Positions 29,928-56,530 of a DNA stretch of 64,000 bases are shown piece after piece. The notes beneath the pieces are model-generated. The model ran no database searches and was not told the DNA's origin. It saw only the letters and a program-made list of their open reading frames with translations. The DNA is taken from assembly GCA_049652745.1 (NCBI GenBank), contig JBASEY010000029.1, positions 66,440 to 130,439 of the forward strand, read 5' to 3'. How positions within the stretch are numbered: position 1 is the stretch's first letter; each line of letters starts with the position of its first letter. The stretch is from a bacterium. GTDB lineage: Bacteria; CSSED10-310. Made by a program: the position numbers and the translations under genes.

Positions 29928-30016
29928 CGCACTTATAACCTCCAAAGATGGTTCAAAATTCCTTGCTGCTAAGCGCAACATAGACAAGTCTGACCAATTC
30001 TGCAACCAGTTTTCAA

Positions 30017-40154: not shown

Positions 40155-40162
40155 ATTAGTCC

Positions 40163-41158: not shown

Positions 41159-41285
41159 AAGCCTTAATTATCCCTTCGTCTTTTCGGGCATAGTTCTGCT
41201 AGAACCCCTGTAAAAACCATACGACATAAAACCACGTTTGTAAAACAGGATGTTTTTTTTGAAACCGCAAGCTGTTCATAAGTAT

Positions 41286-41313
41286 TTGAATTGTTAAAAG
41301 AAAGTGGTAAAAT
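41286..41313 (+). promoter_or_regulatory. Candidate sigma70 promoter for the GGDEF-STAND gene
   Basis: TTGAAT, a 16-nt spacer, then TAAAAT, about 40 nt upstream of the TTG start. Confidence 0.35.
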
Positions 41314-41356
41314 AGCAAAAGTTGGGGAGCTGAAAAACCGAACGGAGACATTTTAG

Positions 41357-44300
41357 TTGAAAATATCGTTGAGAGACGCGCTGACCGGGCTGGCAAACCG
41401 GTTTTTGCTTGATGAAATCAAAAGTGATTTTACCAAACGTGAAACCGGCCAAACCTGGGTTTGCATCATGATAGATGTTGATCATTTTAAATTAGTAAAT
41501 GATCTGTACGGCCATCTTAATGGTGACCGGATTTTAGTTGAGATATCTGGGGCTCTTCAGAAAGTTTTTGAAAAAAAAGGATATACGCTTCGTTTTGGCG
41601 GTGATGAATTTTTAGTGATTCTAAAAGACAAACCGGTTCAAGAAGCCTTGAAGATGGTCGAGAGTCTAATGGATGATGTCCGAAAGCTGGATTTTTTTGC
41701 CAACCTAAGTCTTTCTCTGTCAGTTGGTTTGGCTGAATCACACTTCACTGATAACGATATTATGGTTGTCATAGACAGGGCTGATAAAGCGCTTTACGAT
41801 GCCAAAACAATGGGTAGGGGACGGAAGGTATTATTTTCGGAAAAACAGAATCTCGTGAAAACAGAAGCCATTCGTCTTGGTTACTTCGTCGGGCGCCAAA
41901 CGGAACTGCGCATGCTTCATCAGCTTCTAGAAGAAAGTGTTTCAACCGGACCACGTTTGGCATTGATTGAAGGTGACCCGGGTATTGGAAAAAGTCGGCT
42001 TGCATCGGAAGTGATCCAGTACGCTCATTTTCGCAATTGTGCGATAATGCATTCCGGATGTTTCCAATTTGGTGATATTGAGCCTTATACTTTCTTTTTG
42101 AAACCGATTAGAGAGTTTTTCAAGAGTCTTGTTCCAGGGGACATCCAGAGGATTAAACGCATGGTGGAACCTGTTCATCCGGCGACTGCCGAGCTCTTTT
42201 CCGAGTTGGAATTAAAAGCATCTCCCGATATGCAGCTTTTTGGTGAAGATAGAATAAAATTCCGAATGCTTGAAGACTTTATAAAAATCTTGTCCGCCAT
42301 TTCAAAATGGACTCCGGTTTTGTTCATTGTAGATGATATACACTGGATGACGGCTCCGGACATGGAATTATTCAAGTTTCTGGTACGCTCATCCGGAAAT
42401 AATCATATCATGTTCATGGTGACCATGCGGGACATGGAGGAATCATCTGGAGAAATTCGTAATCACCTTCATTCGCTGAATCGGACAATTCCGTTGTTAA
42501 AACTCAAGTTGGGCAATCTTGAGCGACAGGAGACATATAACTTGATCATGTTTGCCCTTAAAGACCCCAATATGCCATCGAAGTTTTTGGAAACTATCTA
42601 TCGACAAAGCGGAGGTAATCCATTTTTCCTTGAAGAACTGATCAATTCGATGATCCAAACCGGTGCAATATCGCGTAAGGCATCAGGTGATTGGACATAT
42701 TTTTTATCCAGAAATATCAAACTCCCAGAAAGCTTGGCCCAATTGATGGCTGATCGCCTTTATCCTCTAACTTCCAAGAGTCGAGATTACCTGCGGATTG
42801 CGGCATTGTCTTCCGGGAGTTTTTCCGTCGATATGATTGCTGCTGTAACAGGTGATTCTTTAGTCGACGTCATGGAAGGGCTTGAAGAACCGGTTCGTTT
42901 AAACTTGGTTCAATGCATCGTTGGAAAAAACAGGACTATTTACAGATTCGTTCATGACACGATTTGCTCATTTCTGCACCGGGAATTATCCGATGGGATG
43001 AAAAAAATCTATCACAAACGAATTGCCGAGTATCTTGAGGTTAGATACCGTTCTGAGGCTAACGAAGAGATAGTGATCGATATGGCTCATCATTATCAGG
43101 CTGGTGACGGCAAAGAAAAAGCTGCTTGGTCGGCGCTTCTGGCATCGCAGATTTTTGAAAAGCGGCAGGCTTATCGTGAAACGGCGCGATGGCTCGAAAC
43201 CTATTGCCAGAACAGCAAAATATCCGAACACAACAAAGATGAACATTTCAAAGCATCTTTGAAATTAGGCGTTCTGTACACTATGTTCGGCGATTTTGAA
43301 AATGCCGCTCACAATTTGGATTCGGCAGAAAAATTGGCTGTAAAAAGCGACGATATATCAACGGTAAAATGGAGACGAGGCCAGTTGTATCAGACGATGT
43401 GTATGTACAACGAAGCTCGGAAGTGTTACGATCAAGCTTTTGCTTTCGCTGTGTCCGCATTAAAGAAAATCGATGCTCTGAATTCACTGGCATTTCTTAA
43501 TTATGTGCTGGGGAATTTGAAAAATGCTCAGGCTATGATATGCCAAGCAGAAAGTCTTTTAGATAAACTCGAAACCGACCAAGGAACTCGAGAGTACTAC
43601 ATGGCGTCTCTTGCTATGTCCAGAGGAATAGTAGCCACGGCGATCATGCCTGGACCTGAAGCTATTGCTGAATACGAAAAAGCGCTGAACGTTTATATCA
43701 AATATGAAGATTTTTTGAAGCAAGCCATAATTTACAACAACCTGTCAGAAGTCTTTTCAAGAGCGGGTCAATACGAAAAAGCGTTGGAATCGCTGAAAAA
43801 AGCTGCAAAGATCAATAATCGATTAGGTGACGTCGTAAATGAAGCGATAGCATTGTTCAATACAGCGGTTTTGTATGTTGAGATTAACCAACTGGTTTTG
43901 GCGAAGGAATATTTTCAGCGATATAGTGATTATGATCTAGACATCAATGGCGAAATAGGCCAGGCATTCAATTACCAGGGCTTAGGAATGCTGTATGAAG
44001 AGGAAGGCGATTTCGAAAGGGCTGAGATTTCCTTTGGCAAAGCCGTAGACATGTTCGAAAAATTAGGCGTTGAAAAAGAGGCCTTATCTTGCCGCCTCGA
44101 GTTGGCTCATCTTATGATTCGAAACAATAAAATTGAGAAAGCAGAGGAAATTTTTTTGGCAGGATTGAAAAAAACAGACGACATTCCAGAAAAAGGCCTT
44201 GGAAACCAAATACTTTTTATTAAAGGATTGTTGAAATTTAAAAAGAGCGCTCCAAGTGACAGAGATGCTTTGAATGAAGCGGAGGTGTTGATTGAAAAGT

Positions 44301-44518
44301 CCCTGGAGGGACGATACACATATATATCTGTGATTATGCGAAGTTTTTATTACTTGATACAGATCAAACGCCTAAAGGAGGAATATGACCAGGCAGACGA
44401 GCTTCTTCAGAATGCCAGACAAGAATTGGAGAAAAGCCTGAGTTACATTGAAAAAGCTCATATTCAAGAGAGTATTCGAAACAAAGGCTATATCAAAAAG
44501 ATATTCGAAGGCATATGA
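41357..44518 (+). CDS. GGDEF diguanylate cyclase fused to a STAND-type P-loop NTPase and a TPR array
   Basis: The N-terminal GGDEF domain has DALTGLANR, DVDHFKLVND, RFGGDEFLV and RADK (I-site-like RxxD). A P-loop GDPGIGKSRL and a Walker B-like LFIVDDIH follow. The C-terminal 500 aa are repeated TPR-like helices. The start is TTG with a GGAGA Shine-Dalgarno. Confidence 0.8.
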   Translation: MKISLRDALTGLANRFLLDEIKSDFTKRETGQTWVCIMIDVDHFKLVNDLYGHLNGDRILVEISGALQKVFEKKGYTLRFGGDEFLVILKDKPVQEALKMVESLMDDVRKLDFFANLSLSLSVGLAESHFTDNDIMVVIDRADKALYDAKTMGRGRKVLFSEKQNLVKTEAIRLGYFVGRQTELRMLHQLLEESVSTGPRLALIEGDPGIGKSRLASEVIQYAHFRNCAIMHSGCFQFGDIEPYTFFLKPIREFFKSLVPGDIQRIKRMVEPVHPATAELFSELELKASPDMQLFGEDRIKFRMLEDFIKILSAISKWTPVLFIVDDIHWMTAPDMELFKFLVRSSGNNHIMFMVTMRDMEESSGEIRNHLHSLNRTIPLLKLKLGNLERQETYNLIMFALKDPNMPSKFLETIYRQSGGNPFFLEELINSMIQTGAISRKASGDWTYFLSRNIKLPESLAQLMADRLYPLTSKSRDYLRIAALSSGSFSVDMIAAVTGDSLVDVMEGLEEPVRLNLVQCIVGKNRTIYRFVHDTICSFLHRELSDGMKKIYHKRIAEYLEVRYRSEANEEIVIDMAHHYQAGDGKEKAAWSALLASQIFEKRQAYRETARWLETYCQNSKISEHNKDEHFKASLKLGVLYTMFGDFENAAHNLDSAEKLAVKSDDISTVKWRRGQLYQTMCMYNEARKCYDQAFAFAVSALKKIDALNSLAFLNYVLGNLKNAQAMICQAESLLDKLETDQGTREYYMASLAMSRGIVATAIMPGPEAIAEYEKALNVYIKYEDFLKQAIIYNNLSEVFSRAGQYEKALESLKKAAKINNRLGDVVNEAIALFNTAVLYVEINQLVLAKEYFQRYSDYDLDINGEIGQAFNYQGLGMLYEEEGDFERAEISFGKAVDMFEKLGVEKEALSCRLELAHLMIRNNKIEKAEEIFLAGLKKTDDIPEKGLGNQILFIKGLLKFKKSAPSDRDALNEAEVLIEKSLEGRYTYISVIMRSFYYLIQIKRLKEEYDQADELLQNARQELEKSLSYIEKAHIQESIRNKGYIKKIFEGI

Positions 44519-44715
44519 TTTATTCGATATAAGCAGCCCTTTTCAGTTCGCGGTACAGTCCATTGAAATAACCACGCAGACGATCAGTCGGGTCTTGAAC
44601 GCTGCTATACACGTGCCAATTTAATCTTTACATTTGAAGAGTTTTTTTATATTCTCCTTCCCGGATGTTTTTTCTTCCTGATGTATTCGTTGAGCAATTC
44701 TGCGAGGACTCAATA

Positions 44716-45090
44716 ATGATTAATCTTGTCAATTCCATGAGCGTCAAACCTGTGAAAATGCTTGAAGGCGTGACCATGCGACTGGTGATCGGCCCGGATC
44801 AAGGGGCGCCCCATTTCAACCTTCGAATTTTTGAGGTTCAGCCTGAAGCTTCGACCCCATTCCACTCGCATTGGTGGGAGCATGAGGTGTTCATTCTAGC
44901 CGGTAACGGTGTGGTCAGGAACCAGACCGAAGAAAAATCGATCAAGCCTGGAGATGCCATATTGGTTCCCGGCGGAGAAATTCATCAATTTATAAATACC
45001 GGGACAGAAATACTCCGATTTATCTGTTTGGTGCCGCAGGAGTGGCTTAAATCCGTTTCCGATCAAAAAAAACTTGAATCAGATGGTTGA
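44716..45090 (+). CDS. Cupin-2 domain protein
   Basis: The HSHWWEHEVFIL...PGGEIHQF two-His cupin motifs are present. ATG at 44716 follows a GAGGA Shine-Dalgarno. Confidence 0.7.
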   Translation: MINLVNSMSVKPVKMLEGVTMRLVIGPDQGAPHFNLRIFEVQPEASTPFHSHWWEHEVFILAGNGVVRNQTEEKSIKPGDAILVPGGEIHQFINTGTEILRFICLVPQEWLKSVSDQKKLESDG

Positions 45091-45148
45091 ACGGTCTGAA
45101 TGGCGGGCCGTATAAAATATAACTTGAACAAATAAAGGAGATATTGCC

Positions 45149-47482
45149 ATGTCACAAGTGGACACGTTGTTGAACAAATCCAGGGTTAATTTCAAACACT
45201 GGGAGAAAATCAAGGATGTTATTGATCAATTGATCGACTTGATGTTGAACTATCGCCAGAGTGGTCATCCGGGCGGCTCGCGATCGAAAGTGCATGCTTT
45301 GGTCGCTACCGGGTTGTCGGGCGCAATGCGTTGGGATATTCGCCATCCGGAAAAACGTTTCTCAGACCGCTTTATCTTGAGTGCAGGCCACACGGTTCCA
45401 ATGATCTATAGTTTTTTGTGCGTACTTGGGGACGCCATGCGTACGCGTTATGAGAAAACAGGTGACGAACGCTTTAAAATCAATCCTGAAAAAATTGTTT
45501 TATGGGAAGATATCATTACATTCCGACGACGTGATGGACTGCCAGGGCATGCAGAAATGTCCGGTAAAACTTTGTTTTTAAAAGCAAACACCGGCCCATC
45601 CGGCCATGGTATTCCGTTTGCCGTAGGCGAAGCTTTCGCTCTGAAGTATGCCGGTGCTGAAGAGGTCAAAGTATTTGCGTTCGAAGGCGAGGGTGGATTG
45701 ACTCCAGGAGCCTCCCATGAATCGAAAAATACTGCATACGGCCTGGGTCTGAGCAACTTGGTGTTCTATATTGACTGGAATAACTTCGGAATCGACCATC
45801 AGCCTATCGATACTGTCATGTATGGAACGCCTGATGACTGGTTTAAATCTCATGGCTGGAAAGTTTCCGGCAGTCTTGAGGGAGAAAACTGGGAAGAAGT
45901 CGCTCGGGTGATCCTTGAAGCCTCAAGGGGCGACAATCCCGATAAACGGCCCTGCATTGCTTGGACCAAAAACAAGAAAGGCAGAGGTTATCATAAATTT
46001 GACAACGTTTCTCATGGAGCGCCGCATAAAACCAACTCGGAGCTTTTCTGGCAATGCAGAAAGGACTTTGCCGATAAATACGGCGTGAAATGGGATAGTT
46101 TCGGAGCTCCGGAAGGCGCGAAGGATGAGTTGGGACGGCAACTTAACGCAAACCTCAACATAGCGCTCGATGTTATTCGAAAAGACGAAGAGTGTTTGAA
46201 TTATATTACAGATCGATTGGTGGAATTGGGTGACAGCGTACCGGAGACCATCAAAACGTTCAAGCTGGGCGGCCCCAATCCGTTTAAAGACCCGGAAATG
46301 ACGGATTATACGAAATATCCCGAAAGCTTATGGGTCAAGCCTGGAGCCAATGTCCCGAACCGTTCCGCCCTGGGAGCTTGGGGTTCTTGGGTCAATTCAT
46401 GGTCAAGAAAAAAATATGGTCGCCCGGTTTTTATCGCTTGTAGCGCCGATTTGGCTGGATCTACCAATATTGAAGGCTTTGGATTGGGCTTTGACGGAAC
46501 ACCTGGTTGGGGATGGTATGACCGTAACAAAAACTTGGGCGGGACCCTTTTACCTCAAGAGATTACTGAATTTGCCAATTCGGGGCTTTTATGCGGTGCC
46601 GCCGGAGTGAACTTCTCCGATAAACCTTTTGAAGAATGGGATGGATACATGGGAGCCTGCAGCACTTATGGTTCTTTTATGTATCTTAAATACGGCCTGA
46701 TCCGCCTTTTCAGCCAAATGGCTCAGGATCCTGACATAAAGGTGGGAAAGGTGATGTGGGTTGCCGGGCACAGTGGACCCGAAACCGCTGACGACAGCCG
46801 AACACACTTTGGGATATTCGCACCGGGAATCACTCAGCTTTTCCCGGAAGGCCATGTAATCGATCTACACCCTTGGGAATACAACGAAGTCCCCGTTGTC
46901 ATCGCCGCCGCTTTGCGTGCCGATGCTCCATTGATTGCACTGCATCTGACGCGGCCTCCAATCGTGGTCCCGGATCGAAAAAAATTGAATATTCCTTGCC
47001 ATTTCGAAGCTGCTAAAGGCGCTTATGTGATGCGGGAATATCGTTCAGATCAACCACAAATGGGATGTATTTTTGTGCAAGGAACCTCTGTCACTGCAAA
47101 TACCATCGAGCTATTCGAAACGCTCGACCGCGAAAAATTGAATATCAAAATTGTGGCGGCAATCAGCCCTCAGCTTTTCGCACTTCAGCCCATGGCTTAT
47201 CGGGAACAGGTAATAACTCCTGCTGATAAAATGGATTCTACGATCATTTGTAATCGCGCCAAACGTGTGACTTCGGATTGGATGTTCAACCCTCTCGCGG
47301 CAGAATATGCCATGACTTCGGACTGGGATGACAGATGGAGAACCGGTGGCACTTTGGATGATGTCATCGATGAAGCGCATTTGACTCCAGAATGGTTGTT
47401 GAAAGGCATAGAACGGTTTGTGAAAGACCGACCGACAAGGTTGAAAAAAATCAAATCGATGTTGGATTCCTGTCGACAGTAA
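45149..47482 (+). CDS. Divergent transketolase-family ThDP enzyme
   Basis: 777 aa. TK signatures include SGHPGGS, LSAGHTVPMIYS, TGPSGHGI, FEGEGGLTPGASHE followed by a long spacer and FYIDWNNFGID, and HGAPH. In the last two the usual GDG and DDN appear as GEG and DWNN. The Shine-Dalgarno is AAGGAG. Confidence 0.65.
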   Translation: MSQVDTLLNKSRVNFKHWEKIKDVIDQLIDLMLNYRQSGHPGGSRSKVHALVATGLSGAMRWDIRHPEKRFSDRFILSAGHTVPMIYSFLCVLGDAMRTRYEKTGDERFKINPEKIVLWEDIITFRRRDGLPGHAEMSGKTLFLKANTGPSGHGIPFAVGEAFALKYAGAEEVKVFAFEGEGGLTPGASHESKNTAYGLGLSNLVFYIDWNNFGIDHQPIDTVMYGTPDDWFKSHGWKVSGSLEGENWEEVARVILEASRGDNPDKRPCIAWTKNKKGRGYHKFDNVSHGAPHKTNSELFWQCRKDFADKYGVKWDSFGAPEGAKDELGRQLNANLNIALDVIRKDEECLNYITDRLVELGDSVPETIKTFKLGGPNPFKDPEMTDYTKYPESLWVKPGANVPNRSALGAWGSWVNSWSRKKYGRPVFIACSADLAGSTNIEGFGLGFDGTPGWGWYDRNKNLGGTLLPQEITEFANSGLLCGAAGVNFSDKPFEEWDGYMGACSTYGSFMYLKYGLIRLFSQMAQDPDIKVGKVMWVAGHSGPETADDSRTHFGIFAPGITQLFPEGHVIDLHPWEYNEVPVVIAAALRADAPLIALHLTRPPIVVPDRKKLNIPCHFEAAKGAYVMREYRSDQPQMGCIFVQGTSVTANTIELFETLDREKLNIKIVAAISPQLFALQPMAYREQVITPADKMDSTIICNRAKRVTSDWMFNPLAAEYAMTSDWDDRWRTGGTLDDVIDEAHLTPEWLLKGIERFVKDRPTRLKKIKSMLDSCRQ

Positions 47483-47488
47483 CGAGAT

Positions 47489-48847
47489 TTGATCACTGAA
47501 CAATCTCCTGTTGTTTGGCTGATCCGGCCTTGGATAGAGGACTTCTCGGCATTTGATCATTTTGATCAGCCGGTGGGTCTTCTATCCCTTGCTGCTTGGC
47601 TGAGACAAAACGGCTGTAGAGTCTATTATATTGATGCGCTATCAGGGAATAAACCACCGGAAAACAGCCCTGGCGAAACAGCGGCTGAGAAAGTTTCGCT
47701 GAAACTAAGGAAATATCCTTGCCATCAAATCGAAAAACCAATTGTCTTCAGATGTATACCTAGGTATTACAAACATTTTGGCACGTCATTGGAGACTCTT
47801 AAAAAGGAGTTGGAAAGCCTTCCTGTCCCCCAGGTCATTCTGATTACAACCGGTATGACCTATTGGTACCAAGCTGTTCAGAGTTTTGTGCAGGTTTTAC
47901 AAGCTCTCTATCCAGCTTCTCCGATAGCGATCGGCGGAATTTATGCCGGAATCGTTCCCGAACATGCTCGAGCATGTCTACAGCGAACCACGGTTTTTCC
48001 TGGGCAGGCAGGACAACAGTTTTTTTCCTGGATGAGCAAAATATTGGGATTCAATATTCATCCACCGACAGACCAAGCTACAATCTTGCCGGCATGGGAC
48101 CTTGTTTCCAATCGATCATATATCATCTATACGACTAGCCGGGGGTGTCTCAGGCGCTGCTCTTATTGTGCGGCGTCGCTTTTAAGGCCTGTGTGGAAAG
48201 CGCGGCCGCCGAATGTTATCCGCAATGAAATCGAAGCTCTTATTACACAATATCAAGTTTCCGATATCGCTCTTTATGACGATGATTTAGGATGCTCGAC
48301 ACTTGAGGGGCAGCAGCATTTAACCGGCTTGCTTCAGATGTTGGTCTCGCACGAATTTCCAATAAATTGGCACCTTCCCAATGCTCTAGGCGTCGACGCC
48401 GTCACACCCGAAGTGGCTAGGCTTATGTACCAAGCAGGATTTGAACAGCCGCGATTAAGCCTGCACCATTTAGATAAACATCTCGATGAAAAAGGCCTGG
48501 ACACCAGAGCACGCAAGGCTTTTGAAACCGCCGCAAAGCGTCTTGTTGAAGCCGGTTACGAGCAAAGTCGTCTTTCCACCTATCTTATAGCCGGACTGCC
48601 CGGGCAAAAACTGTCCTGGTTGAAAAAAGCCGCTGACCAGTTGCTCGATGTTGGTGTCAAGCCCTATTTGGCACAATTCAGCCCGATACCGGGAACTCCC
48701 GCAGGTGAAAAAAGGTTGCAGCAGTTGACGGAAAAATTTAAGACCGATGATTTGTTGTTGACGAACAAGATTTTTTCAGTTTATGCGCATGATGGATGGT
48801 CTGAGGAAGATTACCAGATGCTTGTTCTTGAACTGAAAAATAGATAG
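47489..48847 (+). CDS. B12-binding-domain radical SAM protein (class B)
   Basis: The N-terminus has a Rossmann-like B12-binding domain (VVWLIRP...LSLAAWLRQNGCRVYYID). The radical-SAM motif is SRGCLRRCSYCAAS. The TTG start is 6 nt after the TK-like stop. Confidence 0.75.
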   Translation: MITEQSPVVWLIRPWIEDFSAFDHFDQPVGLLSLAAWLRQNGCRVYYIDALSGNKPPENSPGETAAEKVSLKLRKYPCHQIEKPIVFRCIPRYYKHFGTSLETLKKELESLPVPQVILITTGMTYWYQAVQSFVQVLQALYPASPIAIGGIYAGIVPEHARACLQRTTVFPGQAGQQFFSWMSKILGFNIHPPTDQATILPAWDLVSNRSYIIYTTSRGCLRRCSYCAASLLRPVWKARPPNVIRNEIEALITQYQVSDIALYDDDLGCSTLEGQQHLTGLLQMLVSHEFPINWHLPNALGVDAVTPEVARLMYQAGFEQPRLSLHHLDKHLDEKGLDTRARKAFETAAKRLVEAGYEQSRLSTYLIAGLPGQKLSWLKKAADQLLDVGVKPYLAQFSPIPGTPAGEKRLQQLTEKFKTDDLLLTNKIFSVYAHDGWSEEDYQMLVLELKNR

Positions 48848-48916
48848 TTCCACCGTTTTTGTGGTTCGTCACGGTTCGACGAAATGTGGTAAGATGTCTT
48901 TGATGGAGGTGTAAGA

Positions 48917-49792
48917 ATGGGAAAATCTTGTTTTTATACAATATTATTGAGATGCTCTTTCCTGCTGATAGGGTTGTCGGTCATGTTTTCGGTTGCTTCG
49001 GCTGACGATGAGGCGCCGGGCCGGGTCTGGCACGTTTGTATGGAGTGCGCCGAACGGGATTTCCCATCGATCGGTGATGCGCTTCGCCAGGCTAAACCCA
49101 AGGACACGATTCTTGTATACTGGGAACCTGCTTTTCCGTACTATATGGAGCATTTGGTTATCGATAAACCTGTCAGGATCATTTCAAATGCGGCTGCAGC
49201 AGACATTACATCCTATGATTATTATCCGGTTATTGCGTCCGTATCGAATGAAATTGTGCATATCACGGTTCCTGGAGTCGAACTGATAGGGTTTAATCTA
49301 ATCTATCTTCAAAAACCGGCCGATTGTGAAGATGAGGCTTTATGCTATGCAGAGTCCATTGGATTGCGTCTGGATGCCCCGGCTCTGATTCGTCAGGTTG
49401 CCATCACCAACTGCTCGACAGGTATACTAACGGCATATACGAAACCATATTTAGGTCAGGCAAGTACGATACAGCTTTGTCGGATTGGTCTACCACCAGA
49501 TCATGGATTGACCCAAACAGGTTTTATGCAAACAAAAAACCACTATGGGATCGTATTGCTGGGATGTCGCCAAGAAGGACAATATCTTGGAGTTGGACGG
49601 GATAAAATCTCTGATTGCCAAATAATGCGAAACGCCCAGTACGGGTTGGTTTACACGACTGCCAATGAGCCTGAAATGCTTGGAAATCTGATAGAACTCA
49701 ATGGGAAAGGGCCTTTTAGAATAGTCAATCCCAAACTAGGCGAAAATCAGAAACTGATCTGGTTCGACAAGTTGAAAGGATCTGAAAAATAA
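48917..49792 (+). CDS. Secreted hypothetical protein, possible parallel beta-helix
   Basis: Signal peptide MGKSCFYTILLRCSFLLIGLSVMFSVASA. Repetitive short beta-strand segments with NCSTG-type turns are visible. No catalytic motif is recognised. Confidence 0.4.
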   Translation: MGKSCFYTILLRCSFLLIGLSVMFSVASADDEAPGRVWHVCMECAERDFPSIGDALRQAKPKDTILVYWEPAFPYYMEHLVIDKPVRIISNAAAADITSYDYYPVIASVSNEIVHITVPGVELIGFNLIYLQKPADCEDEALCYAESIGLRLDAPALIRQVAITNCSTGILTAYTKPYLGQASTIQLCRIGLPPDHGLTQTGFMQTKNHYGIVLLGCRQEGQYLGVGRDKISDCQIMRNAQYGLVYTTANEPEMLGNLIELNGKGPFRIVNPKLGENQKLIWFDKLKGSEK

Positions 49793-49909
49793 TTTTTCTG
49801 TAGGTGCTGTAATACATTCATTTCTGTAAACCACGGAATCGACAGAGATCGATAGACGTGTTAGTGTTGTTTGGCGAGACGATTCAAGTCAGCTTGGGAG
49901 GATTGGCTA

Positions 49910-51223
49910 ATGGTTCAAAAGGGTGATAAGCGGGTTGGGATAATCGGCGGTGGGATCAGTGGAATGAGTGCAGCCTGGGAATTATCCAGGAAAGGAATCC
50001 AAGTCGATCTATTCGAACGAGATGTGCATTTGGGCGGTTTAGCCGGCTGGTTTGATGTAAACGGTTCGACATTGGAAAAATTTTACCATCATTTATATAA
50101 TCTGGATCAGGATTTAATTCGATTGATTCAGGAAGTTGGTCTTGGAAGTAATCTGGTATTCCGCCGAACGAATACTGGCGCCTTTTATGTAAATAAAATA
50201 TATCGGCTTAGCAGTCCATTGGATTTGATAAAATATAAGCCCTTACCTTTTCTGGATAGATTAAAAATGGGCATGCTGGTGCTTAAAGCAAGAAAGGTCA
50301 AGGATTGGAAAGAGCTTGATAATATGACGGCCAGGGATTGGATTGTCCAAAATTCAAGTCAGGCGGTCTTTGATATTGTCTGGTCACCATTGTTCCGGTC
50401 AAAATTTGGTAAGTATGCTGACGATATCTCGGCAGCGTGGTTATGGAGCAAGCTGGTTCAGAGAGGGGGCTCCAGGAGCAAAGGAGGAGCAGAAGAACTC
50501 GGTTATTTGAAAGGTGGATATGGACTGTTGTTCAATACGATGGAGAAGCAACTGACAGAACGAAATGTACGCATCCATAAACAATCTCCGGTTGAAACCA
50601 TTGTCTGTGAAAATGGGAAGGTTACAGGGCTCAGAGTTTGTGGAGATATGATTCCATTCACTCACGTAATTGCCTGTGTTCAATTGCCGGATTACCTGGA
50701 AATTGTTGGCGAGGCGCCGGAACAATATCGGAATGAACTGGGTAAAATCGGCTATTTAGGGAATGTCACCCTGGTTTTAAAATTGAACCGCAGTTTATCA
50801 GATACATATTGGATTAATGTCACAGATCCGGAATGTCCATTTGTTGGAGTTATTGAACAGACAAACCTGTTGGACGAAACGCATTATGGTGGACACCATT
50901 TTGCGTATATAAGTAGATATATGGATGTAGATGACCCTCTATATCTGATGACTCCCCAGGACTTGTTTGCTGTTTATCGTCCTTGGTTGCAAAGGGTTTT
51001 TCCGGAATTTTCCGAAAGTTGGCTGGACGATCTGATGCTGTGGCGTGACCCTCATTCTCAAGCCGTTGTCACAACAGGATATCGTACTAGAGTACCGGAT
51101 ATCCAAACGCCGTTGAAAGGATTATATTTGTCGACGATGGCGCAGATTTTTCCAGAGGATCGCCAAATGAGCAATGGAGTTAAATTTGCCAAAAAAGCGG
51201 CTGCTATGGTACTTACCGAATAA
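49910..51223 (+). CDS. FAD-dependent oxidoreductase, amine-oxidase / phytoene-desaturase-like
   Basis: Dinucleotide-binding motif RVGIIGGGISGMSAAWEL...LFERDVHLGG. 437 aa. ATG at 49910 follows a GGGAGGA Shine-Dalgarno. Confidence 0.75.
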   Translation: MVQKGDKRVGIIGGGISGMSAAWELSRKGIQVDLFERDVHLGGLAGWFDVNGSTLEKFYHHLYNLDQDLIRLIQEVGLGSNLVFRRTNTGAFYVNKIYRLSSPLDLIKYKPLPFLDRLKMGMLVLKARKVKDWKELDNMTARDWIVQNSSQAVFDIVWSPLFRSKFGKYADDISAAWLWSKLVQRGGSRSKGGAEELGYLKGGYGLLFNTMEKQLTERNVRIHKQSPVETIVCENGKVTGLRVCGDMIPFTHVIACVQLPDYLEIVGEAPEQYRNELGKIGYLGNVTLVLKLNRSLSDTYWINVTDPECPFVGVIEQTNLLDETHYGGHHFAYISRYMDVDDPLYLMTPQDLFAVYRPWLQRVFPEFSESWLDDLMLWRDPHSQAVVTTGYRTRVPDIQTPLKGLYLSTMAQIFPEDRQMSNGVKFAKKAAAMVLTE

Positions 51224-51547
51224 TCCTGGCGCTAAAATTTGAAGGGATAAAATTCGACAGCCTCTACTTGCTGCTCGCCTGTCAGCAACGGTTTGGCAAA
51301 AGCGTTCCAACCCCCCTCTTTCTGGAACCTTGTCTAATTAAAAAGAAAAAAAATTGTTTTGGCAAGTGCTTTTTAAAAAAATTTTATCTCCTTATTTTTC
51401 CTCAGTTAAGAAATTATATGTAATTGATTGAAATAAAAGAATATAAATTTTACATAACAGTGTGAGGCCGATAACGAATCAAACTCTAATAGTGAGGATA
51501 TTATGGTCAAAAAGATAATTTGGACCCCCAATAGGTAAGCTGTCGTG

Positions 51548-53446
51548 TCAGTTTAGGGCGGGCACTGTGTAGACAGAGTATAAAAGCTCTTGACGACCTA
51601 CCGGATTGCGAAATTCCTGTAAAACACCTCCAGGTATCTCTTCCAGCAGTCTTTTTTTCAGCCATTCTTGTTTCGCCAGATCGAAAAAAATCAATGAAGT
51701 TGTGCGCTTACGGTTGACAAGATGGCTCAAAACAGGCGATTTTTCCGATACATGTACAAAATTATATGCATCGCCGCCCAATCCCTTGTTTCGATTATAT
51801 AATGTGATCGTAATTATATCGTCATGTACCCAGGGATTGATAAAAACGACATATTGTTGATCCATGATTTTATCAGCAAAATGAATTGCTTCCAGACGTT
51901 TTGCCGGGCCGAAATATGAGTGATCCTTGACAATTGACCAGGTTGATATCCAAAGGTTGAATCCATGTAGGGTTATGCCAATCAAGCATCCTATAACAAG
52001 AGTAGGAATGACTCGACGAAAGAGAGGTTTTTGAAAAAGCGCTGAACCGGTGACGCTTATCTCACGAAAGACAACAACTGCAACCAGATAGATGAGCGGC
52101 CATATGATAAGAGTTCTACGATGCAGTGGAAAAATCAAAAGCGGAGGAAGTGTTCCACAAAAGTAATAAATGGCCAGAATGGGATTCCAGCGTAGAATCA
52201 GGCAAAGCAGCGCTACAATAAAGCTCAATGCAAATGCCCCTGAATAAAAGCGATGAATTGTTTGTTCAGCAAAGGTTGAACGAAACCATTCAACGCTGTT
52301 TCGAAGTATATTTTTCAAGATCACGTTGGCTGGTTGGAGATCTGATAGCACCTGATCATCGACTGTTTTTTTCCAAACAGGGGTGTCTGTGGCGAGGGAG
52401 CCGAATTGAGATTGGAACATTTTTATGGGGCCATGAAGAATATTGAGCTGTAAGGTTAGGAGAACGGCAAAGACGATTAAAGCGCAAACCGGGCCTGGCC
52501 ACCAATTTTTCCATATTTTTCGTTTTAAAGCGGGTACGATAAAGATTATGAACCCGACAAACAAGTAAAGCACTTTAAGCGGTGCATAGGACCATCCTAT
52601 ACAACCGGCAAAGAAGCCGAAACCGATCCATTTGACAATTCCTATTCTTGATTCGTTATTCCTCCAAATTGAATCTGTCGTCCAGAGGAGGCCGAGGGAG
52701 ACGGCGACGCTTGTGCTGAAAAAAGTGCCCATTCGAGATTGGGCCAGGTGCCATGGGGAAAGACCGAAGACTGCAAGAGCTATGATAGACCATCGATCCG
52801 GAATAGTTTTTCTAACCCAAAACCAGAATATCAATAAGAGTAAAGTGGATCCGATGACTTCGGAAAATCGGACGGACCAAACAGAAACACCGAACAGTTT
52901 CATAACAGACCATAAAACAGGAAGCATCAGAGGAGACTCACCACCACCCCGTAAATCAAATCCCCTTCCCTGAAAGGGATGGATCGGCCATCTGCCTTCT
53001 ACCGCAGCCATCCCCCAGACACCTGTGTTGGCAGCATATTCATTGAGAAATGGAGGCCAACTTTCAAGCTCGATCAATTTAATCAAGGTGATGACCAGTA
53101 TGGCAAGTAACCCGGAAATCATGGAGGCGTGTGAAGGCGATGTCGTCCACTCATCTTTCAGGTGTTTTCTGAAAACTATTCCATAGACTAGCAGTGTGAT
53201 GCAGGCTGCGAGAATCAGGGGTATATTCGCCCAATGTTTTTCCGGAAGCAGTTGATTGTGAATAAGCAGAGCGTTGACGACCAGGAGAATCATGGATAAG
53301 CGTCCTTTTATTCGATTTGTCGCCGGCAGATACCAATCCAGGAAAACAATGGCGATACTGATGCCGACTAAATACGGAACAAATCCCGAAACCCATGGTT
53401 TCAGCCAATTTAAATAAGGATATGAGAACCAAAGCAGATGATTCAT
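51548..53446 (-). CDS. Polytopic membrane protein, probable GT-C (PMT/ArnT-like) glycosyltransferase
   Basis: 632 aa with more than 12 predicted TM helices and long periplasmic loops. The topology is ArnT-like. The Shine-Dalgarno is weak. Confidence 0.45.
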   Translation of the reverse strand: MNHLLWFSYPYLNWLKPWVSGFVPYLVGISIAIVFLDWYLPATNRIKGRLSMILLVVNALLIHNQLLPEKHWANIPLILAACITLLVYGIVFRKHLKDEWTTSPSHASMISGLLAILVITLIKLIELESWPPFLNEYAANTGVWGMAAVEGRWPIHPFQGRGFDLRGGGESPLMLPVLWSVMKLFGVSVWSVRFSEVIGSTLLLLIFWFWVRKTIPDRWSIIALAVFGLSPWHLAQSRMGTFFSTSVAVSLGLLWTTDSIWRNNESRIGIVKWIGFGFFAGCIGWSYAPLKVLYLFVGFIIFIVPALKRKIWKNWWPGPVCALIVFAVLLTLQLNILHGPIKMFQSQFGSLATDTPVWKKTVDDQVLSDLQPANVILKNILRNSVEWFRSTFAEQTIHRFYSGAFALSFIVALLCLILRWNPILAIYYFCGTLPPLLIFPLHRRTLIIWPLIYLVAVVVFREISVTGSALFQKPLFRRVIPTLVIGCLIGITLHGFNLWISTWSIVKDHSYFGPAKRLEAIHFADKIMDQQYVVFINPWVHDDIITITLYNRNKGLGGDAYNFVHVSEKSPVLSHLVNRKRTTSLIFFDLAKQEWLKKRLLEEIPGGVLQEFRNPVGRQELLYSVYTVPALN

Positions 53447-53955
53447 AGGTCAGAAATACCTTTAAATTCTTCATTGTATGCGTTCAATGATTGAACCATG
53501 ACAATAGTATTCTGGCTGAAAAACAGATGATGATCAAGCTTTTGATGGTGTGGCATCAAGGTTGGAATCGTTGTTTTGAGAAATCCGATGCATCGGTATC
53601 CAACTCCTTCTTAAACTAGTTTAACATTTTGAAATATAATATATTTTTCTCAAAATAGAACTTTTCTTAAGCGTCAATACGTGTTACGATCTCGTTTTGT
53701 CTCATGAAAGCGGATTTGTATTTTTAAAAGAAGGTATTACAGACACCGGTCAGATAGAGCGGGATATCATAAAGGAAAGAAGAGATGGATTATCTAAGAC
53801 AGGCTGATGAAAAACGAATCTTGTCTTTATTGTGGGCTGTGATACAAATCGTGATTCGGAAAAACCGTTCAAAATGGAGTAACCGGGGTGAATAATACAG
53901 CAATTGTTTTTGAACGCAGCCAATATTTTATAGAATGCCTGGTTGAGGTGAAATC

Positions 53956-55710
53956 ATGAATCCTTTGGGCCCAAGGGAATTACAGCGTGATCGATTGTTG
54001 TTTCTGTTGAAAACGTTGGAAGACATGGGACGGACACTGACGGGAGGTGAATCGTTTGACAAAGCTGCCCGTTTTCTTCTGCGAACACTTTTAGAATCGA
54101 TCGGGATTTCTGAAGGCGCGATTTTTACATTTGTATCGAGGCGAAGTGTTTTGAAGCTGAAGGAAAAAACTCAGAATCTGGATTGTGATTTGTCTGAGAT
54201 GAAAATTTCCGGTGAACAGATCAGGTATCTGGCTGAAAATCCGGTTCCTCATAAGACAGACCAGCTTCCAGAAGAGCTTGCTAAAAAATTTATGGAAATG
54301 ATCGAGTTCTGGAAAACAAAGGATATTCAGGTAATGATTCCTTTGGCGGTAAAAGGGGATCTTTTGGGGATGGTGTGTTTAGGCCATCGACAGGCAGATC
54401 AGCCATACAGCAAAATCGATCTGGAAATACTTGCTCTTTTGACCCAGCATATCAGTTTATATTTTCATGGCCAAAAAAGCCTGGAACAGCTTCAACAAGC
54501 AAACTATGAACTCAAACGAAAAATTCTGGAAATGGAGCAATTGTATGAAGTTGCTCTCGCAGTCACCAGGTTACGAAATCCGGAAGAGTTGCTGGGTGAA
54601 ATCCTGTCAAGAGCCACTAAAATCCTGGATGCACGATATGGCGCAGTATGGCTGATGACTAATCAGTCTTATTATTTAGCAGGGGCATTTGGTTTTAGTG
54701 ATGTCGATTCGATTCCGGAAATTATGGTGGATTTAAGTAAGCTGAGTCCTAAAACGTTTCGATTTGATCCCGATTCTGCCGGGAGCCTGTTAGCGAGCAT
54801 GAGTATTCGAAACACAACTATCGGGGTATTGAGCGTCGCTGGTAAAGAAAGCCCTTTGGGTGGTTTTATGGATTTTTCAGAATCCGATTATCAACTTCTG
54901 AATACTTTTGCAAATCAGGCAGCCGTAGCCTTGGAAAATGCACGGCTGTATGTGGAAGCTGTAGCCAAAGAGAGAATGGATCAAGAAATTAGGGTAGCTG
55001 CTGAAATTCAGGAATCTATTCTGCCGGACGCTTTTCCAGAGACTCCGGATTTGGATATCTCAGCGATGACATTGCCTTGTCAGATTGTCGGGGGCGATTT
55101 TTTTGATTTTTTCGAAATGGCGGATGGAAAACCAGCTATGATAATTGCCGATGTTTCCGGTAAAGGTGTTCCTGCTGCAATGATGGTATCGACCGTTCAT
55201 GGCGCCTTACATGCTTTTACTGAGTTTGTCGACAATCTTGACGAACTGGCATCGAGAATAAATTCTCTTCTTGTGAAAACGACACCTGATAATAAATTTG
55301 TTACAGCGACCTTTCTGACTTGGAATTCAATGTCAAAAGAAATTACCACACTGTCAGCCGGCCATGAACCTATCGTCCTGATCAAAGCCGATGGAACGAT
55401 GACACATCTGTCTCATGGGGGTATGGTTCTGGGATTGTTCGCCGGTATTGAATTTGAGACTCATACACTGGTATTGAATAAAGGTGACTGTCTCTGCCTA
55501 CATACTGACGGCATTATCGATCAACGCAATAGTCTTGGCGAGCGATTTGGGATTGCTCGTTTTGAAGAATTATTGCGTGAGTCTGTGACGGCAAATAGAA
55601 AACAATCGGCTGCGATGATAGTGCAGAATGTTTTTCGCAGCCTAGCCAAATTTGCCAAAGATGAACCCGCAACAGATGATCAAACATTGATAATTGTCAT
55701 TCGTCGGTAA
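53956..55710 (+). CDS. GAF-domain sensor fused to a PP2C-type Ser/Thr phosphatase (RsbU/SpoIIE family)
   Basis: Tandem GAF-like regions come first. The C-terminal PPM domain has QIVGGDFFDF and IADVSGKGVPAAMM, followed downstream by GHEP and LHTDG. Confidence 0.85.
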   Translation: MNPLGPRELQRDRLLFLLKTLEDMGRTLTGGESFDKAARFLLRTLLESIGISEGAIFTFVSRRSVLKLKEKTQNLDCDLSEMKISGEQIRYLAENPVPHKTDQLPEELAKKFMEMIEFWKTKDIQVMIPLAVKGDLLGMVCLGHRQADQPYSKIDLEILALLTQHISLYFHGQKSLEQLQQANYELKRKILEMEQLYEVALAVTRLRNPEELLGEILSRATKILDARYGAVWLMTNQSYYLAGAFGFSDVDSIPEIMVDLSKLSPKTFRFDPDSAGSLLASMSIRNTTIGVLSVAGKESPLGGFMDFSESDYQLLNTFANQAAVALENARLYVEAVAKERMDQEIRVAAEIQESILPDAFPETPDLDISAMTLPCQIVGGDFFDFFEMADGKPAMIIADVSGKGVPAAMMVSTVHGALHAFTEFVDNLDELASRINSLLVKTTPDNKFVTATFLTWNSMSKEITTLSAGHEPIVLIKADGTMTHLSHGGMVLGLFAGIEFETHTLVLNKGDCLCLHTDGIIDQRNSLGERFGIARFEELLRESVTANRKQSAAMIVQNVFRSLAKFAKDEPATDDQTLIIVIRR

Positions 55711-55733
55711 AAATCAATGTCATATAAAAATGC

Positions 55734-56342
55734 TCATTCAACTTTTCGCTGTTCTTCCGGATGAAATCGGCTGGAAGGGTCGGATGAAGAGGTATCTTGC
55801 CGGCGGCTTGTGCGAAACAAGAAAAACAGCAACAACAGTGAAACAAGTGTAATTCCGAAGGGAAGTCTGGTTGGGTAAGGTAATGAAAAAAATCCTCTGC
55901 TGGTAAAAAAACCGATAAAAGATAGAAGCAGAGCCCAAAGAGTACAATTTATAAATTGAGCCCAAGCAAACCAGAACCAATTAGTTTTAAAAAACCCGAA
56001 AGCGGTCGCCGAAACAAGACGAATTCCATACCCATATTGCGTGATAAAAGTCGATTCCCAAGGATGGTGGATGATAACGTTTTCCAAAGTACCGATCAGT
56101 GTTTTTATGCGTGAACGAGATAATAGATGATGCTGCTTACTGAGCCAATATCCCAGAAGGTAAAAAAAACAGTGACCGACCCAAGAACTCACCGCAGCCA
56201 CAACAATAACTACCGAAATATTCAGAATGCCGTCGGCGGCAAGAATCCCTGCAAGGATTACAAAAACAAAGCTCTGGAAAAAAGAACCCAAAGCGATTGC
56301 CCACAACCCATATTGATCGAGTAATGAATAAAACGTATCCAT
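55734..56342 (-). CDS. DedA/SNARE-associated family membrane protein
   Basis: 202 aa. The N-terminal pattern YGLWAIALGSFFQSFVFVILAGILAADGILN...WVGHCFFYLLGY is typical of DedA. The Shine-Dalgarno is GGAGA. Confidence 0.65.
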   Translation of the reverse strand: MDTFYSLLDQYGLWAIALGSFFQSFVFVILAGILAADGILNISVVIVVAAVSSWVGHCFFYLLGYWLSKQHHLLSRSRIKTLIGTLENVIIHHPWESTFITQYGYGIRLVSATAFGFFKTNWFWFAWAQFINCTLWALLLSFIGFFTSRGFFSLPYPTRLPFGITLVSLLLLFFLFRTSRRQDTSSSDPSSRFHPEEQRKVE

Positions 56343-56530
56343 TCAATCTCCGGATCTCAAGAATAGCCTTTTAAAACAGAGAATTGCAAGTTCTTAATCT
56401 TTTTAATGAATAAGGCACGAAGATAATTATGGTAATCGTAAAGCGAATATTTTATTTGGCCTCTTGCTCGCAAAAAAAAGCACAAAACGGTAATATGGCT
56501 GTCGCTAGATCGAGAAGGAGGTAACCGGCC

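Follow-up and report, generated by a model that had tools for sequence, protein, structure and literature searches.

In three-component periplasmic glycosylation systems of the GtrA/GtrB/Gtr* and ArnC/ArnT kind, a GT2 synthase and a dedicated flippase accompany a membrane glycosyltransferase of the GT-C type; the pentofuranose system described in PMC11127046 served here as a further point of comparison, and the decaprenyl-phospho-arabinose (DPA) pathway is described in the same work. The mycobacterial DPA pathway comprises a UbiA-type synthase, DprE1/DprE2, a GtrA-family protein, and GT-C arabinosyltransferases, and its lipid-linked donor is modified before transfer. Other described counterparts of the genes considered here are canonical transketolase (TktA/Tkl1, EC 2.2.1.1; TIGR00232, PF00456/PF02779/PF22613), the class B radical SAM enzymes (PhpK, BchE, HpnJ, BzaD, and the ladderane model TIGR04072), and the flavoenzymes protoporphyrinogen oxidase (PPO), phytoene desaturase (PDS), and HpnE. 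Genes related to these lie next to one another in a 64,000-nucleotide stretch of DNA (the window) from the uncultured CSSED10-310 lineage, and the initial annotation had read them as one candidate small-molecule or glycoconjugate cluster. The comparisons reported here favor a different reading, to which we assign a probability of roughly 0.7: the region would be a lineage-specific juxtaposition of three independent units, and not one pathway. Unit A consists of a cupin gene and a transketolase-like (TK-like) gene, unit B of a B12-domain radical SAM (rSAM) gene, and unit C of a flavoenzyme (FAD) gene and a GT-C gene.

Five of the genes are encoded on the plus strand: the cupin gene at 44716-45090 (124 aa; the ORF is extendable to 44665), the TK-like gene at 45149-47482 (777 aa), the rSAM gene at 47489-48847 (452 aa, TTG start), a secreted-protein gene at 48917-49792 (291 aa), and the FAD gene at 49910-51223 (437 aa) or, from a TTG at 49871, with 450 aa. 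The GT-C gene is encoded on the minus strand at 51548-53446 (632 aa). All six genes and their domain types, as initially annotated, were confirmed by ORF positions and profile matches, and so were the short gaps between the plus-strand genes, which measure 58, 6, 69, and 78-117 nt in succession, the 6 nt lying between the TK-like and rSAM genes. Such spacing favors a single small-molecule or glycoconjugate cassette, in which the ThDP enzyme would build a skeleton, the B12-rSAM and the flavoenzyme would tailor it, and the GT-C would attach or export the product. In agreement with a cassette, no named housekeeping equivalog among NCBIfam-type curated models was matched above cut-off by any of the genes, and the closest relative, L095 (L numbers denote comparison loci fetched from relatives and other genomes), retains the entire order; there the TK-like protein is 94% and the rSAM 70% identical.

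Beyond this one relative, however, synteny fails. The full six-gene order was found in L095 only, and gene order is already disrupted at 70-76% TK identity (L093, L094, and L007/L010). L093 retains GGDEF-TK-rSAM only, with the cupin lost and the downstream genes replaced; in L094 the rSAM gene lies 8.6 kb upstream of the cupin-TK pair, with accD, lptD, and other genes intervening; and a TK homolog (P0009) and an rSAM homolog (P0141) share a 2.97-Mb contig at a separation of ~150 kb. Across 80 rSAM loci of other species, the long TK, cupin, beta-helix, flavoenzyme, and GT-C genes were all absent, and the rSAM, beta-helix, and GT-C genes were likewise absent from 83 long-TK loci. Cupin and FAD homologs among those 83 loci were confined to the phylum relative L007, where the FAD homolog is 9.5 kb from the TK gene, bar one weak cupin-fold match in L167 (27% identity, 8.8 kb from the long TK), and no neighbor of the long TK is conserved in more than 8 of the 83. 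Several TK and FAD homologs of the phylum appear to lie on the same contig, as judged solely from equal contig sizes; from this apparent sharing and from L007, a loose TK-FAD linkage is therefore taken to be common within the phylum, a point against full independence of the units. A biosynthetic gene cluster would be recognized by co-occurrence of its genes in relatives outside the genus or in further lineages, and this was not seen: the count is 0 of 163 loci from other lineages. The rSAM, moreover, has a different and more widespread position within the phylum, and the three large families are each abundant and stand-alone in varied contexts. Furthermore, a profile search gave no match at curated cut-off to the phosphonate, carbapenem, or hopanoid families. 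One cassette spanning the region is thus very unlikely, and the idea of a single cupin, ThDP, B12-rSAM, and FAD tailoring cassette had to be given up. The main value of this result is negative, in that a plausible cassette appears to have arisen by rearrangement within the genome of a single uncultured lineage and is for this reason not a target for natural-product mining.

The arrangement around the rSAM gene suggests how the juxtaposition may have arisen. Three deeper relatives bear on this: in L094, the gene order is GH77 (minus), response regulator (minus), rSAM (plus), and N-acetyltransferase (plus), and in L010 and L013 it is GH77 (minus), response regulator (minus), and rSAM (plus). The GH77, PatA_N response regulator, and N-acetyltransferase genes are present in the window, and nothing lies between the regulator (minus) and the N-acetyltransferase (plus) at 30006-30016. 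Because this empty slot is occupied by the rSAM in L094, the juxtaposition of TK and rSAM seems to be derived through relocation: the rSAM gene would have moved, in one sub-lineage, from behind the GH77/response-regulator block to behind the TK gene. Judging from the 6-nt gap in the window and a 4-nt overlap in L093, TK and rSAM are almost certainly co-transcribed in this sub-lineage, so a local functional link is possible. A narrower pathway has to be weighed here, in which the long TK and the B12-rSAM would cooperate wherever they are adjacent, for example by the rSAM methylating or rearranging the product or substrate of the TK. Its tight spacing (9 nt in L095) is found in three lineages that span TK identities down to 76% and rSAM identities down to 54%, and the adjacency survives changes in the flanks, as in L093. 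Nevertheless, each of the two families occurs much more widely than the pairing, the two genes also lie apart within the same phylum, and neither gene occurs at the loci of the other elsewhere (this rSAM in 0/83 other long-TK loci, the long TK in 0/80 other rSAM loci). The rSAM also evolves much faster than the TK, as the 70% and 94% identities in L095 illustrate, which is not suggestive of coupling. Cooperation of this kind is accordingly considered quite unlikely; under the three-unit reading, the rSAM in its new place would probably be transcribed with the TK without a shared pathway.

The TK-like protein was confirmed to be unusually long, exceeding canonical transketolase by ~110 residues. 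It scored 71.9 bits against Transketolase_N (Pfam) and fell below every curated transketolase cut-off, with 104.5 bits against TIGR00232 (cut-off 682.25; alignment over residues 34-692) and 76-103 bits against the other three models (cut-offs 488-788). Among 4730 scored relatives, the best 120 are 758-799 aa long and 58-94% identical, and come from several phyla. These data place it in a large uncharacterized clade, ~780 aa in length and ~60% identical across phyla, that appears to be sister to canonical transketolase. The initial annotation had staked its cluster on two observations, namely synteny in relatives and a TK-like protein lying outside ordinary transketolases; the second held and the first did not. 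No literature on the long-TK clade was found, and no characterized or structurally solved member turned up. The protein is a conserved stand-alone enzyme of the transketolase type, and not a tailoring enzyme tied to its neighbors.

The putative ThDP/Mg2+ binding motif, read from the translation, is encoded at 45683-45784 (plus strand) as EGEGG (residues 179-183) followed by DWNN (209-212), giving GEG-X29-N (E181...N211) with Glu for the Asp of the GDG-X(25-30)-N motif, so that a carboxylate and the Asn are retained. This variant had been singled out in the initial annotation, and it is indeed present, but it is not peculiar to this gene: GEG instead of GDG, and DWN[DN] instead of DDN, are found throughout the ~780-aa clade, and E179, G180, E181, D209, W210, and N211 are invariant in an alignment of 16 members. 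D209 and N211 are also common to canonical transketolase, as are H40, H81, H134, H289, S432, E474, H541, D549, H553, and R602, at positions that we take to be equivalent to those of the E. coli enzyme; R405 is probably the first phosphate-binding Arg, in a part of the alignment that is ambiguous. Thus, at 20-25% identity to canonical transketolase, the active-site histidines, the ThDP-activating Glu, an Asp, and the phosphate-binding Ser/His/Arg align, and the metal-binding Asn is kept. The same three domains (PP/Pyr/C) form one chain, and the additional residues lie in insertions in PP, the PP-Pyr linker, Pyr, and the C-terminal domain. An AlphaFold model (pLDDT 80.6) agreed with this assignment, the best 50 PDB folds all being transketolases (TM 0.72-0.77). 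Identity as a phosphoketolase or DXS was rejected, with no XFP match in Pfam, 18 bits to DXP_synthase_N, and neither enzyme in the top 50 folds. Residue conservation and the predicted fold together suggest that the protein is probably a real ketol-transferase. Since the long TK lies beside a split canonical TK in some genomes, as in L122 where the two adjoin in one operon, it is unlikely to be just the housekeeping enzyme; a GntR-regulated TIM-barrel isomerase gene accompanies the two in some genomes. The GEG clade may possibly have a donor or acceptor specificity distinct from that of pentose-phosphate transketolase, and this very large, strongly conserved clade with its invariant metal motif is possibly a useful by-product of the analysis.

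The cupin scored 57.5 bits against Cupin_2 (Pfam), and both metal motifs, HSHWWEHE...G and G..PGGEIH...N, are intact in the translation. It is predicted to be a small single-domain metal-binding protein that forms unit A with the TK gene, the pair being kept in L095, L007, and L094, absent in L093, and absent from the long-TK loci of other phyla. In this unit, the long TK would shuttle a two-carbon ketol group from one sugar phosphate to another, as its conserved ThDP-activating glutamate, active-site histidines, and sugar-phosphate-binding residues imply, and the cupin would act as a small metal-dependent partner of the isomerase type.

The rSAM of unit B matched Radical_SAM (PF04055) with 42 bits (cut-off 29.5), and its B12-binding match (PF02310) stayed below the cut-off of 32.1 at 23.5 bits, although precomputed PF02310 matches are present in most relatives. 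The CxxxCxxC motif reads CLRRCSYC, encoded at 48146-48169, and 22 sequences share C220, C224, and C227 without exception. The protein therefore resembles the class B enzymes in its radical SAM barrel and cysteine motif, which follow a putative N-terminal Rossmann-like B12 domain. Unlike the characterized subfamilies, for which the cut-offs are 360-600, it scored no more than 37 bits with any NCBIfam subfamily (best PhpK, 36.9 against 600), the hopanoid (HpnJ-type) model was absent among its profile matches, and it has no conserved pathway context, its neighbors differing in every phylum. A PDB sequence search gave zero matches. A scan of one genome per species yielded at least 589 candidate stretches encoding a relative, and the family stands alone in the genomes of hundreds of species, most of them uncultured and many of Desulfobacterales type. 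These data suggest a class-B-type enzyme of a stand-alone family, predicted to be cobalamin-dependent. A link to heme was considered, as AsnC/NirDL-like (siroheme-decarboxylase-type) and MtnA-like genes precede the rSAM in 24 of the 80 loci; it was rejected because all 24 loci belong to Desulfobacterales-type MAGs and reflect order-level synteny. Similarly, a canonical TK gene that faces the rSAM in convergent orientation at 4 Desulfobacteraceae-type loci was treated as coincidence among related genomes.

The 291-aa protein encoded between units B and C has a single hydrophobic, signal-like N-terminal segment at residues 9-27 in a hydropathy scan, and its Beta_helix match (16.6 bits) is below cut-off. 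Its relatives number 27 among 1.84 billion representatives, 6 of them at E<=1e-30, a PDB search gave zero matches, and among the fetched loci it occurs in L095 and near-identical contigs only. It appears to be a lineage-specific secreted orphan.

For the FAD protein, the initial assignment to the desaturase/amine-oxidase fold was upheld by profile and fold alike: it matched Amino_oxidase (Pfam) with 88.8 bits and carries a GGGISG dinucleotide motif, and its model (pLDDT 91) is closest to PPO, CgoX, and PDS (TM 0.76-0.81). It shares with PPO, PDS, and HpnE the GxGxxG motif for FAD at the N-terminus and the tendency of the family to act on lipophilic compounds; however, it is 15-18% identical to them, its context is related to glycans and not to tetrapyrroles or carotenoids, and it fell below the cut-offs for PPO (TIGR00562, 41.4 against 97.85), HpnE (84.2 against 283), crtI_fam (34.3 against 238), and zeta-carotene desaturase. 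It did match NF005560/PRK07233, with 472.4 bits (cut-off 252; residues 21-448 on profile positions 2-429 of 435), a widespread family labeled merely "hypothetical protein" in NCBIfam; a literature search for PRK07233 found nothing. A role like that of UDP-galactopyranose mutase was rejected, the best folds listed being PPO, CgoX, PDS, and monoamine, putrescine, and nicotine oxidases.

The 632-aa protein matched PMT_2 marginally (26.6 bits, cut-off 26.1; residues 172-328). Twelve hydrophobic peaks, some of them overlapping, predict ~10 membrane spans, and an acidic loop motif, NEYAAN...GGGESPLMLPVLW (NEY...ESPL), is read from residue 135. A PDB sequence search gave zero matches; the L095 ortholog is 76% identical and holds the same convergent position. 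The protein is thus predicted to be a polytopic PMT_2/ArnT-like GT-C membrane glycosyltransferase, in accordance with its first annotation.

Homologs of the flavoenzyme in distant bacteria are found among glycosylation genes. Both of two arbitrarily chosen distant homologs (2/2) are direct same-strand neighbors of a PMT_2 gene. In L176 (Endothiovibrio), the order is GT2 (PgfS/ArnC-like, 300 bits), flippase-like protein, FAD enzyme, and PMT_2, which places this flavoenzyme family with the ArnC/PgfS-like GT2, flippase-like protein, and GT-C known from GtrA/ArnC-type systems; in L177, PMT_2 is followed by the FAD enzyme, with DegT, epimerase, GT2, and PglD-like genes nearby. In a third homolog, from the actinomycete Embleya (L180), the order is DegT, GT2, and FAD enzyme, the GT2 and FAD genes overlap by 4 nt, and no polytopic ORF lies near the FAD gene. 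Homologs of 30% identity lie in operons of UbiA, FAD-binding oxidoreductase, SDR, SDR, FAD enzyme, and GtrA on proteobacterial plasmids, a layout that resembles the DPA pathway described in PMC11127046. The link between flavoenzyme and GT-C draws on only three outgroup contexts and three more distant ones, and the flavoenzyme and membrane glycosyltransferase pair appears to be the sole part of the region that recurs in distant bacteria. The glycoconjugate idea of the initial annotation survives to this extent, the FAD and GT-C neighbors recurring in unrelated phyla.

From these contexts, we infer that the flavoenzyme and the GT-C form a module of lipid-carrier-linked glycosylation. Orthology of the GT-C across contexts was tried and rejected: BLASTP found no similarity of the window GT-C to that of L176 or L177, and the latter two share a weak N-terminal match only. 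A fully coincidental placement, in which the two genes are unrelated and the flavoenzyme acts on a tetrapyrrole, a carotenoid, or an amine, would agree with this lack of similarity, with the fold relatives of the flavoenzyme, with the convergence of the two genes in the window, and with the GT2 donor synthase, of which none was found among the Pfam-scanned ORFs of at least 200 aa in the 64-kb window (the RNR and VTT ORFs were judged from precomputed Pfam marks). It is nonetheless unlikely, given the PMT_2 genes adjoining both arbitrarily chosen homologs, the GT2 overlap in the third, the UbiA...GtrA operons of the more distant ones, and the failed PPO, HpnE, and CrtI cut-offs. Compared with the GtrA/GtrB/Gtr* and ArnC/ArnT systems, the window has the GT-C without an adjacent GT2 gene or a dedicated flippase, with only a DedA/VTT protein encoded 2.3 kb away; both a GT2 synthase and a flippase-like protein are present beside the GT-C of L176.

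If the pair is a module, the flavoenzyme would oxidize or desaturate a polyprenyl-phosphate-linked intermediate, at either the sugar or the lipid, and the GT-C would pass the sugar on to an acceptor in the envelope, outside the cytoplasmic membrane. By analogy with DprE1/DprE2, in which a lipid-linked donor is modified before transfer, this phylum-spanning and unrecognized flavoenzyme may thus act on the polyprenyl-phosphate-linked sugar or the carrier lipid ahead of the GT-C. The folds differ: DprE1 has a vanillyl-alcohol-oxidase-type fold, whereas that of the window flavoenzyme is of the amine-oxidase/PPO/PDS type. A literature search found no flavoenzyme partner of GT-C systems, and no system described there has such a component. 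That the NF005560 flavoenzyme is an additional component of lipid-carrier glycosylation and, independently, that the GEG transketolase clade has a distinct specificity are tentative proposals, which we regard as somewhat more doubtful than probable. The occurrence of NF005560 beside GT-C and GT2 genes and in DPA-like operons nevertheless offers a testable lead to a step that is missing from lipid-linked glycan synthesis.

The FAD and GT-C genes of the window converge and are therefore on separate transcripts; the AT-rich spacer between them, also confirmed as annotated, spans 51224-51547 (324 nt, 35% GC). A scan of 40000-58000 against Rfam gave zero matches, the spacer included, and counts of promoter and terminator patterns across the region are near the shuffled expectation. 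The spacer holds a single weak terminator-like hairpin, on the minus strand at 51274-51257.

Six genes between positions 44716 and 53446 of the window had been read in the initial annotation as one candidate small-molecule or glycoconjugate cluster. The ORF list confirmed the six genes as described, and each family assignment was supported by Pfam and NCBIfam. A cupin (44716-45090; clear Cupin_2 match in Pfam), a transketolase-like protein of 777 aa (the long TK; 45149-47482; Pfam Transketolase_N, 71.9 bits), a 452-aa radical SAM protein (rSAM; 47489-48847), a 291-aa putatively secreted protein with weak beta-helix similarity (the beta-helix protein) and a single N-terminal hydrophobic segment (48917-49792) and an FAD protein (start 49871 or 49910, end 51223) are all encoded on the + strand, and a 632-aa polytopic membrane glycosyltransferase (GT-C; 51548-53446) is encoded on the - strand. 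The FAD protein has a clear Amino_oxidase match in Pfam and scores 472 bits against NF005560/PRK07233 of NCBIfam (cut-off 252); the PMT_2 match of the GT-C is marginal (26.6 bits vs a Pfam cut-off of 26.1). The short successive gaps (58, 6, 69 and ~100 nt, the 6 nt separating TK from rSAM) and the convergent FAD/GT-C spacer (324 nt, 35% GC) were confirmed by measurement. Identical copies of the locus are also present in public assemblies, and, of the named relatives, MAGs labelled 'candidate division CSSED10-310' are the nearest.

Synteny was compared at three depths: among phylum relatives, at an alternative position of rSAM, and in loci outside the phylum. One relative (L095; TK identity 94%) keeps the whole order, from the ribonucleotide reductase gene through the LVIVD gene. 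A second (L093; 76%) retains just the GGDEF/STAND gene, TK and rSAM, without the cupin, and carries sucrose-metabolism genes downstream. In a third (L094; 70%), rSAM lies 8.6 kb upstream of the cupin-TK pair, with an N-acetyltransferase, DUF4416, thioredoxin, accD, lptD and a PLP enzyme in the interval; on the 2.97-Mb contig ERZ21831077 contig_1 (71%), cupin-TK is followed by fumarase, rSAM is ~150 kb off, and an FAD homologue lies 9.5 kb downstream. Outside the phylum, 80 rSAM loci from a scan taking one genome per species (including Desulfobacterales and other Thermodesulfobacteriota, Calditrichia, Sumerlaeota, WOR-3, Omnitrophota, Neomarinimicrobiota, Anaerolineae and Binatia) held no homologues of the long TK, cupin, beta-helix, FAD or GT-C proteins, and none of 83 long-TK loci from metagenomes held homologues of rSAM, the beta-helix protein or the GT-C. 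With the order broken in L093, L094 and the 2.97-Mb contig, and no co-occurrence in either set of loci, these data argue against a single tailoring cassette; on synteny, the outcome goes against the cluster by the refuting test that the initial annotation itself had set. The region instead pairs a cupin with a long GEG-type TK and a PRK07233 flavoenzyme with a GT-C; between the two pairs lie a stand-alone B12-rSAM, apparently relocated, and a secreted orphan protein. Nothing here is categorically new. All of the parts come from known superfamilies, in which they form uncharacterised subfamilies; the value lies in two uncharacterised yet very widespread families and in a lead from the flavoenzyme to glycosylation.

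The commoner site of rSAM in the phylum is behind a block of GH77 and PatA_N response-regulator genes, as in the relatives L094 (2684-9236), L010 (6056-11338) and L013; in L094, it sits between the regulator and the N-acetyltransferase, directly preceding the latter. The equivalent block of the window (26087-30955) has nothing between regulator and N-acetyltransferase, and rSAM is instead found 17 kb away, behind TK. Because this slot is empty in the window, the adjacency of rSAM to TK appears to be a derived relocation, shared by the window, L095 and L093 as one sub-lineage. The move is a clean example of how relocating one gene can create a misleading 'operon'. A 1053-aa GGDEF/STAND-ATPase/TPR protein is encoded directly upstream of cupin-TK (41357-44518, + strand), and its gene keeps the same upstream position in L095 and L093.

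The rSAM family itself is coherent and widespread (at least 589 species-level genome matches), with a conserved N-terminal P-W-I-x-D-F-[SA]-A-[FY]-D motif, MTYW, and C220/C224/C227. The Radical_SAM match is 42 bits; the B12-binding match is sub-threshold in the window protein, and the domain is present in most relatives. No curated NCBIfam subfamily and no solved structure was matched. By analogy with class B enzymes, the default expectation would be methylation or another radical C-C transformation. The neighbours of rSAM vary by phylum (TilS, Mfd, GWxTD and others), and the sole recurrent ones are found in Desulfobacterales-type genomes. The order there, in L016, L018, L022 and ~20 other loci, is MtnA-like (IF-2B), AsnC/NirDL-like (siroheme-decarboxylase-type), B12-rSAM and M17 aminopeptidase, with the genes directly upstream of rSAM at about 8400-10000. 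This neighbourhood was dropped as a clue to function because it is confined to one order.

The initial annotation had also singled out the GEG...DWNN motif of the long TK as unusual. The EGEGG...DWNN motif was found in the translation where it had been reported; however, it is no oddity of one gene, as EGEGG and DWN[DN] are invariant across the long-TK clade and are thus a clade signature rather than a degenerate site. The clade is very large (4730 relatives scored, the best 120 of which are 758-799 aa long), and members from Anaerolineae, Eisenbacteria, Krumholzibacteriia and many metagenome contigs retain 57-62% identity. When aligned with a canonical TK from the Desulfobacterales-type locus L016, the long TK conserves H40, H81, H134, H289, S432, E474, H541, D549, H553 and R602, that is, histidines, the ThDP-activating Glu (E474), an Asp, and the phosphate-binding Ser, His and Arg; we take these to correspond to E. 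coli TK H26, H66, H100, H261, S385, E411, H461, D469, H473 and R520. Its extra length relative to canonical TK is made up of insertions in the PP domain, linker, Pyr domain and C-terminal domain. The AlphaFold model (pLDDT 80.6, with low confidence chiefly in active-site loops) has transketolases as all 50 of its 50 best PDB fold matches, and an identity as DXS or phosphoketolase was rejected, since neither is among them. Placement of the protein against these families, as the initial annotation had proposed, gave a transketolase-type fold and residues but a score below the curated TK cut-off: the alignment to TIGR00232 is full-length but weak (104.5 bits vs 682). This score places the long TK outside the curated TK equivalogs; from residues and model, we infer that it would act in a transketolase-like manner on phosphorylated sugars.

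No neighbour of the long TK is conserved among the 83 loci; a xylose-isomerase-like TIM-barrel gene lying just upstream is found most often (8/83). In locus L122, one operon (228-6972) encodes a GntR regulator, a xylose-isomerase-like TIM barrel, a long GEG TK, split TK subunits A and B, and an Asp/Glu-racemase-like protein. Since the two TK types adjoin there, the long form is probably not a mere replacement for ordinary TK, and this side-by-side arrangement suggests that it has its own specificity. A metal-binding cupin is encoded upstream of the long TK in four of five CSSED10-310 lineages, making it, by reasonable inference, a putative isomerase-type partner. The window also carries a xylose-isomerase-like TIM-barrel gene (22713-23495, + strand), of the same Pfam family as the commonest upstream neighbour in other phyla, and a transaldolase/FSA gene (23956-24621, - strand), which both precede the long TK by ~21 kb. 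The scanned window ORFs included no canonical TK.

With moderate confidence, the flavoenzyme and the GT-C are read as the one pair in the region that is linked in function, and they would belong to lipid-carrier-dependent glycosylation; this much of the glycoconjugate idea stands, while synteny speaks against the rest of the cassette. The flavoenzyme family is large, is ~45% identical across phyla and is named just 'hypothetical protein' in NCBIfam. Its context was drawn from two distant members (L176 and L177), selected solely by the length of their contigs, and from plasmid records. Endothiovibrio (L176) has, in order, GT2 (300 bits to PgfS, 168 bits to the ArnC model), a flippase-like protein (LPG_synthase_TM, TIGR00374), the FAD enzyme and PMT_2; L177 has PMT_2 immediately ahead of the FAD gene, with DegT, epimerase, GFO/IDH/MocA, GT2 and PglD-like genes nearby. 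Embleya has DegT, GT2 and an FAD enzyme of 40% identity, the latter two genes overlapping by 4 nt. Furthermore, plasmids of Burkholderia stagnalis (L178), Rhodobacteraceae (L179) and Rhizobium tumorigenes (L181) each carry, at ~2400-8700, an operon of UbiA prenyltransferase, FAD-binding oxidoreductase, SDR, SDR/epimerase, amine-oxidase-fold FAD enzyme (30% identity) and GtrA, a layout resembling the mycobacterial decaprenyl-phospho-arabinose pathway (summarised in PMC11127046) with an extra flavoenzyme. The operon in L179 is followed by a gene for a 578-aa polytopic protein. For the window flavoenzyme, the best fold matches of the model (pLDDT 91) are protoporphyrinogen oxidase, CgoX and phytoene desaturase (TM 0.76-0.81, 15-18% identity), which are enzymes of lipophilic substrates, and the protein scores below the curated cut-offs of those families. 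However, few contexts were sampled, the GT-C proteins of the window, L176 and L177 could not be aligned to each other, and the two genes are convergent in the window. No GT2 gene was matched among scanned window ORFs of at least 200 aa.

The window GT-C is predicted to cross the membrane ~10 times and carries an acidic loop motif, NEY...ESPL. In ArnT/PMT-type enzymes this motif normally comes after the first membrane helix; in the window protein, four hydrophobic segments (residues 1-134) lie ahead of it. Residues 1-134 are an N-terminal extension that is also found in the L095 orthologue. A DedA/VTT-family membrane protein is encoded 2.3 kb from the GT-C gene (55734-56342, - strand). Members of the DedA family have been linked to the recycling of polyprenyl-phosphate carriers, and the position of this one may bear on the glycosylation module or be coincidental.

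Among 1.84 billion representative proteins, the secreted 291-aa protein has only 27 relatives, of which about six resemble it in size; the remainder are weak matches to repeat modules in giant proteins. By these counts it is considered a lineage-specific orphan. Elsewhere in the window, a 606-aa ORF (18420-20240, - strand) has no Pfam match, and a 509-aa ThyX-family protein with two Thy1 stretches (9540-11069, - strand) may be a tandem fusion. A 667-aa LVIVD-repeat protein (56531-58534, + strand) is encoded with a 7-nt overlap ahead of a 445-aa SPASM-domain radical SAM protein (58528-59865, + strand), and the two are possibly a maturase-substrate pair. The same order is seen in L095, where the SPASM radical SAM gene begins at the end of the LVIVD gene.
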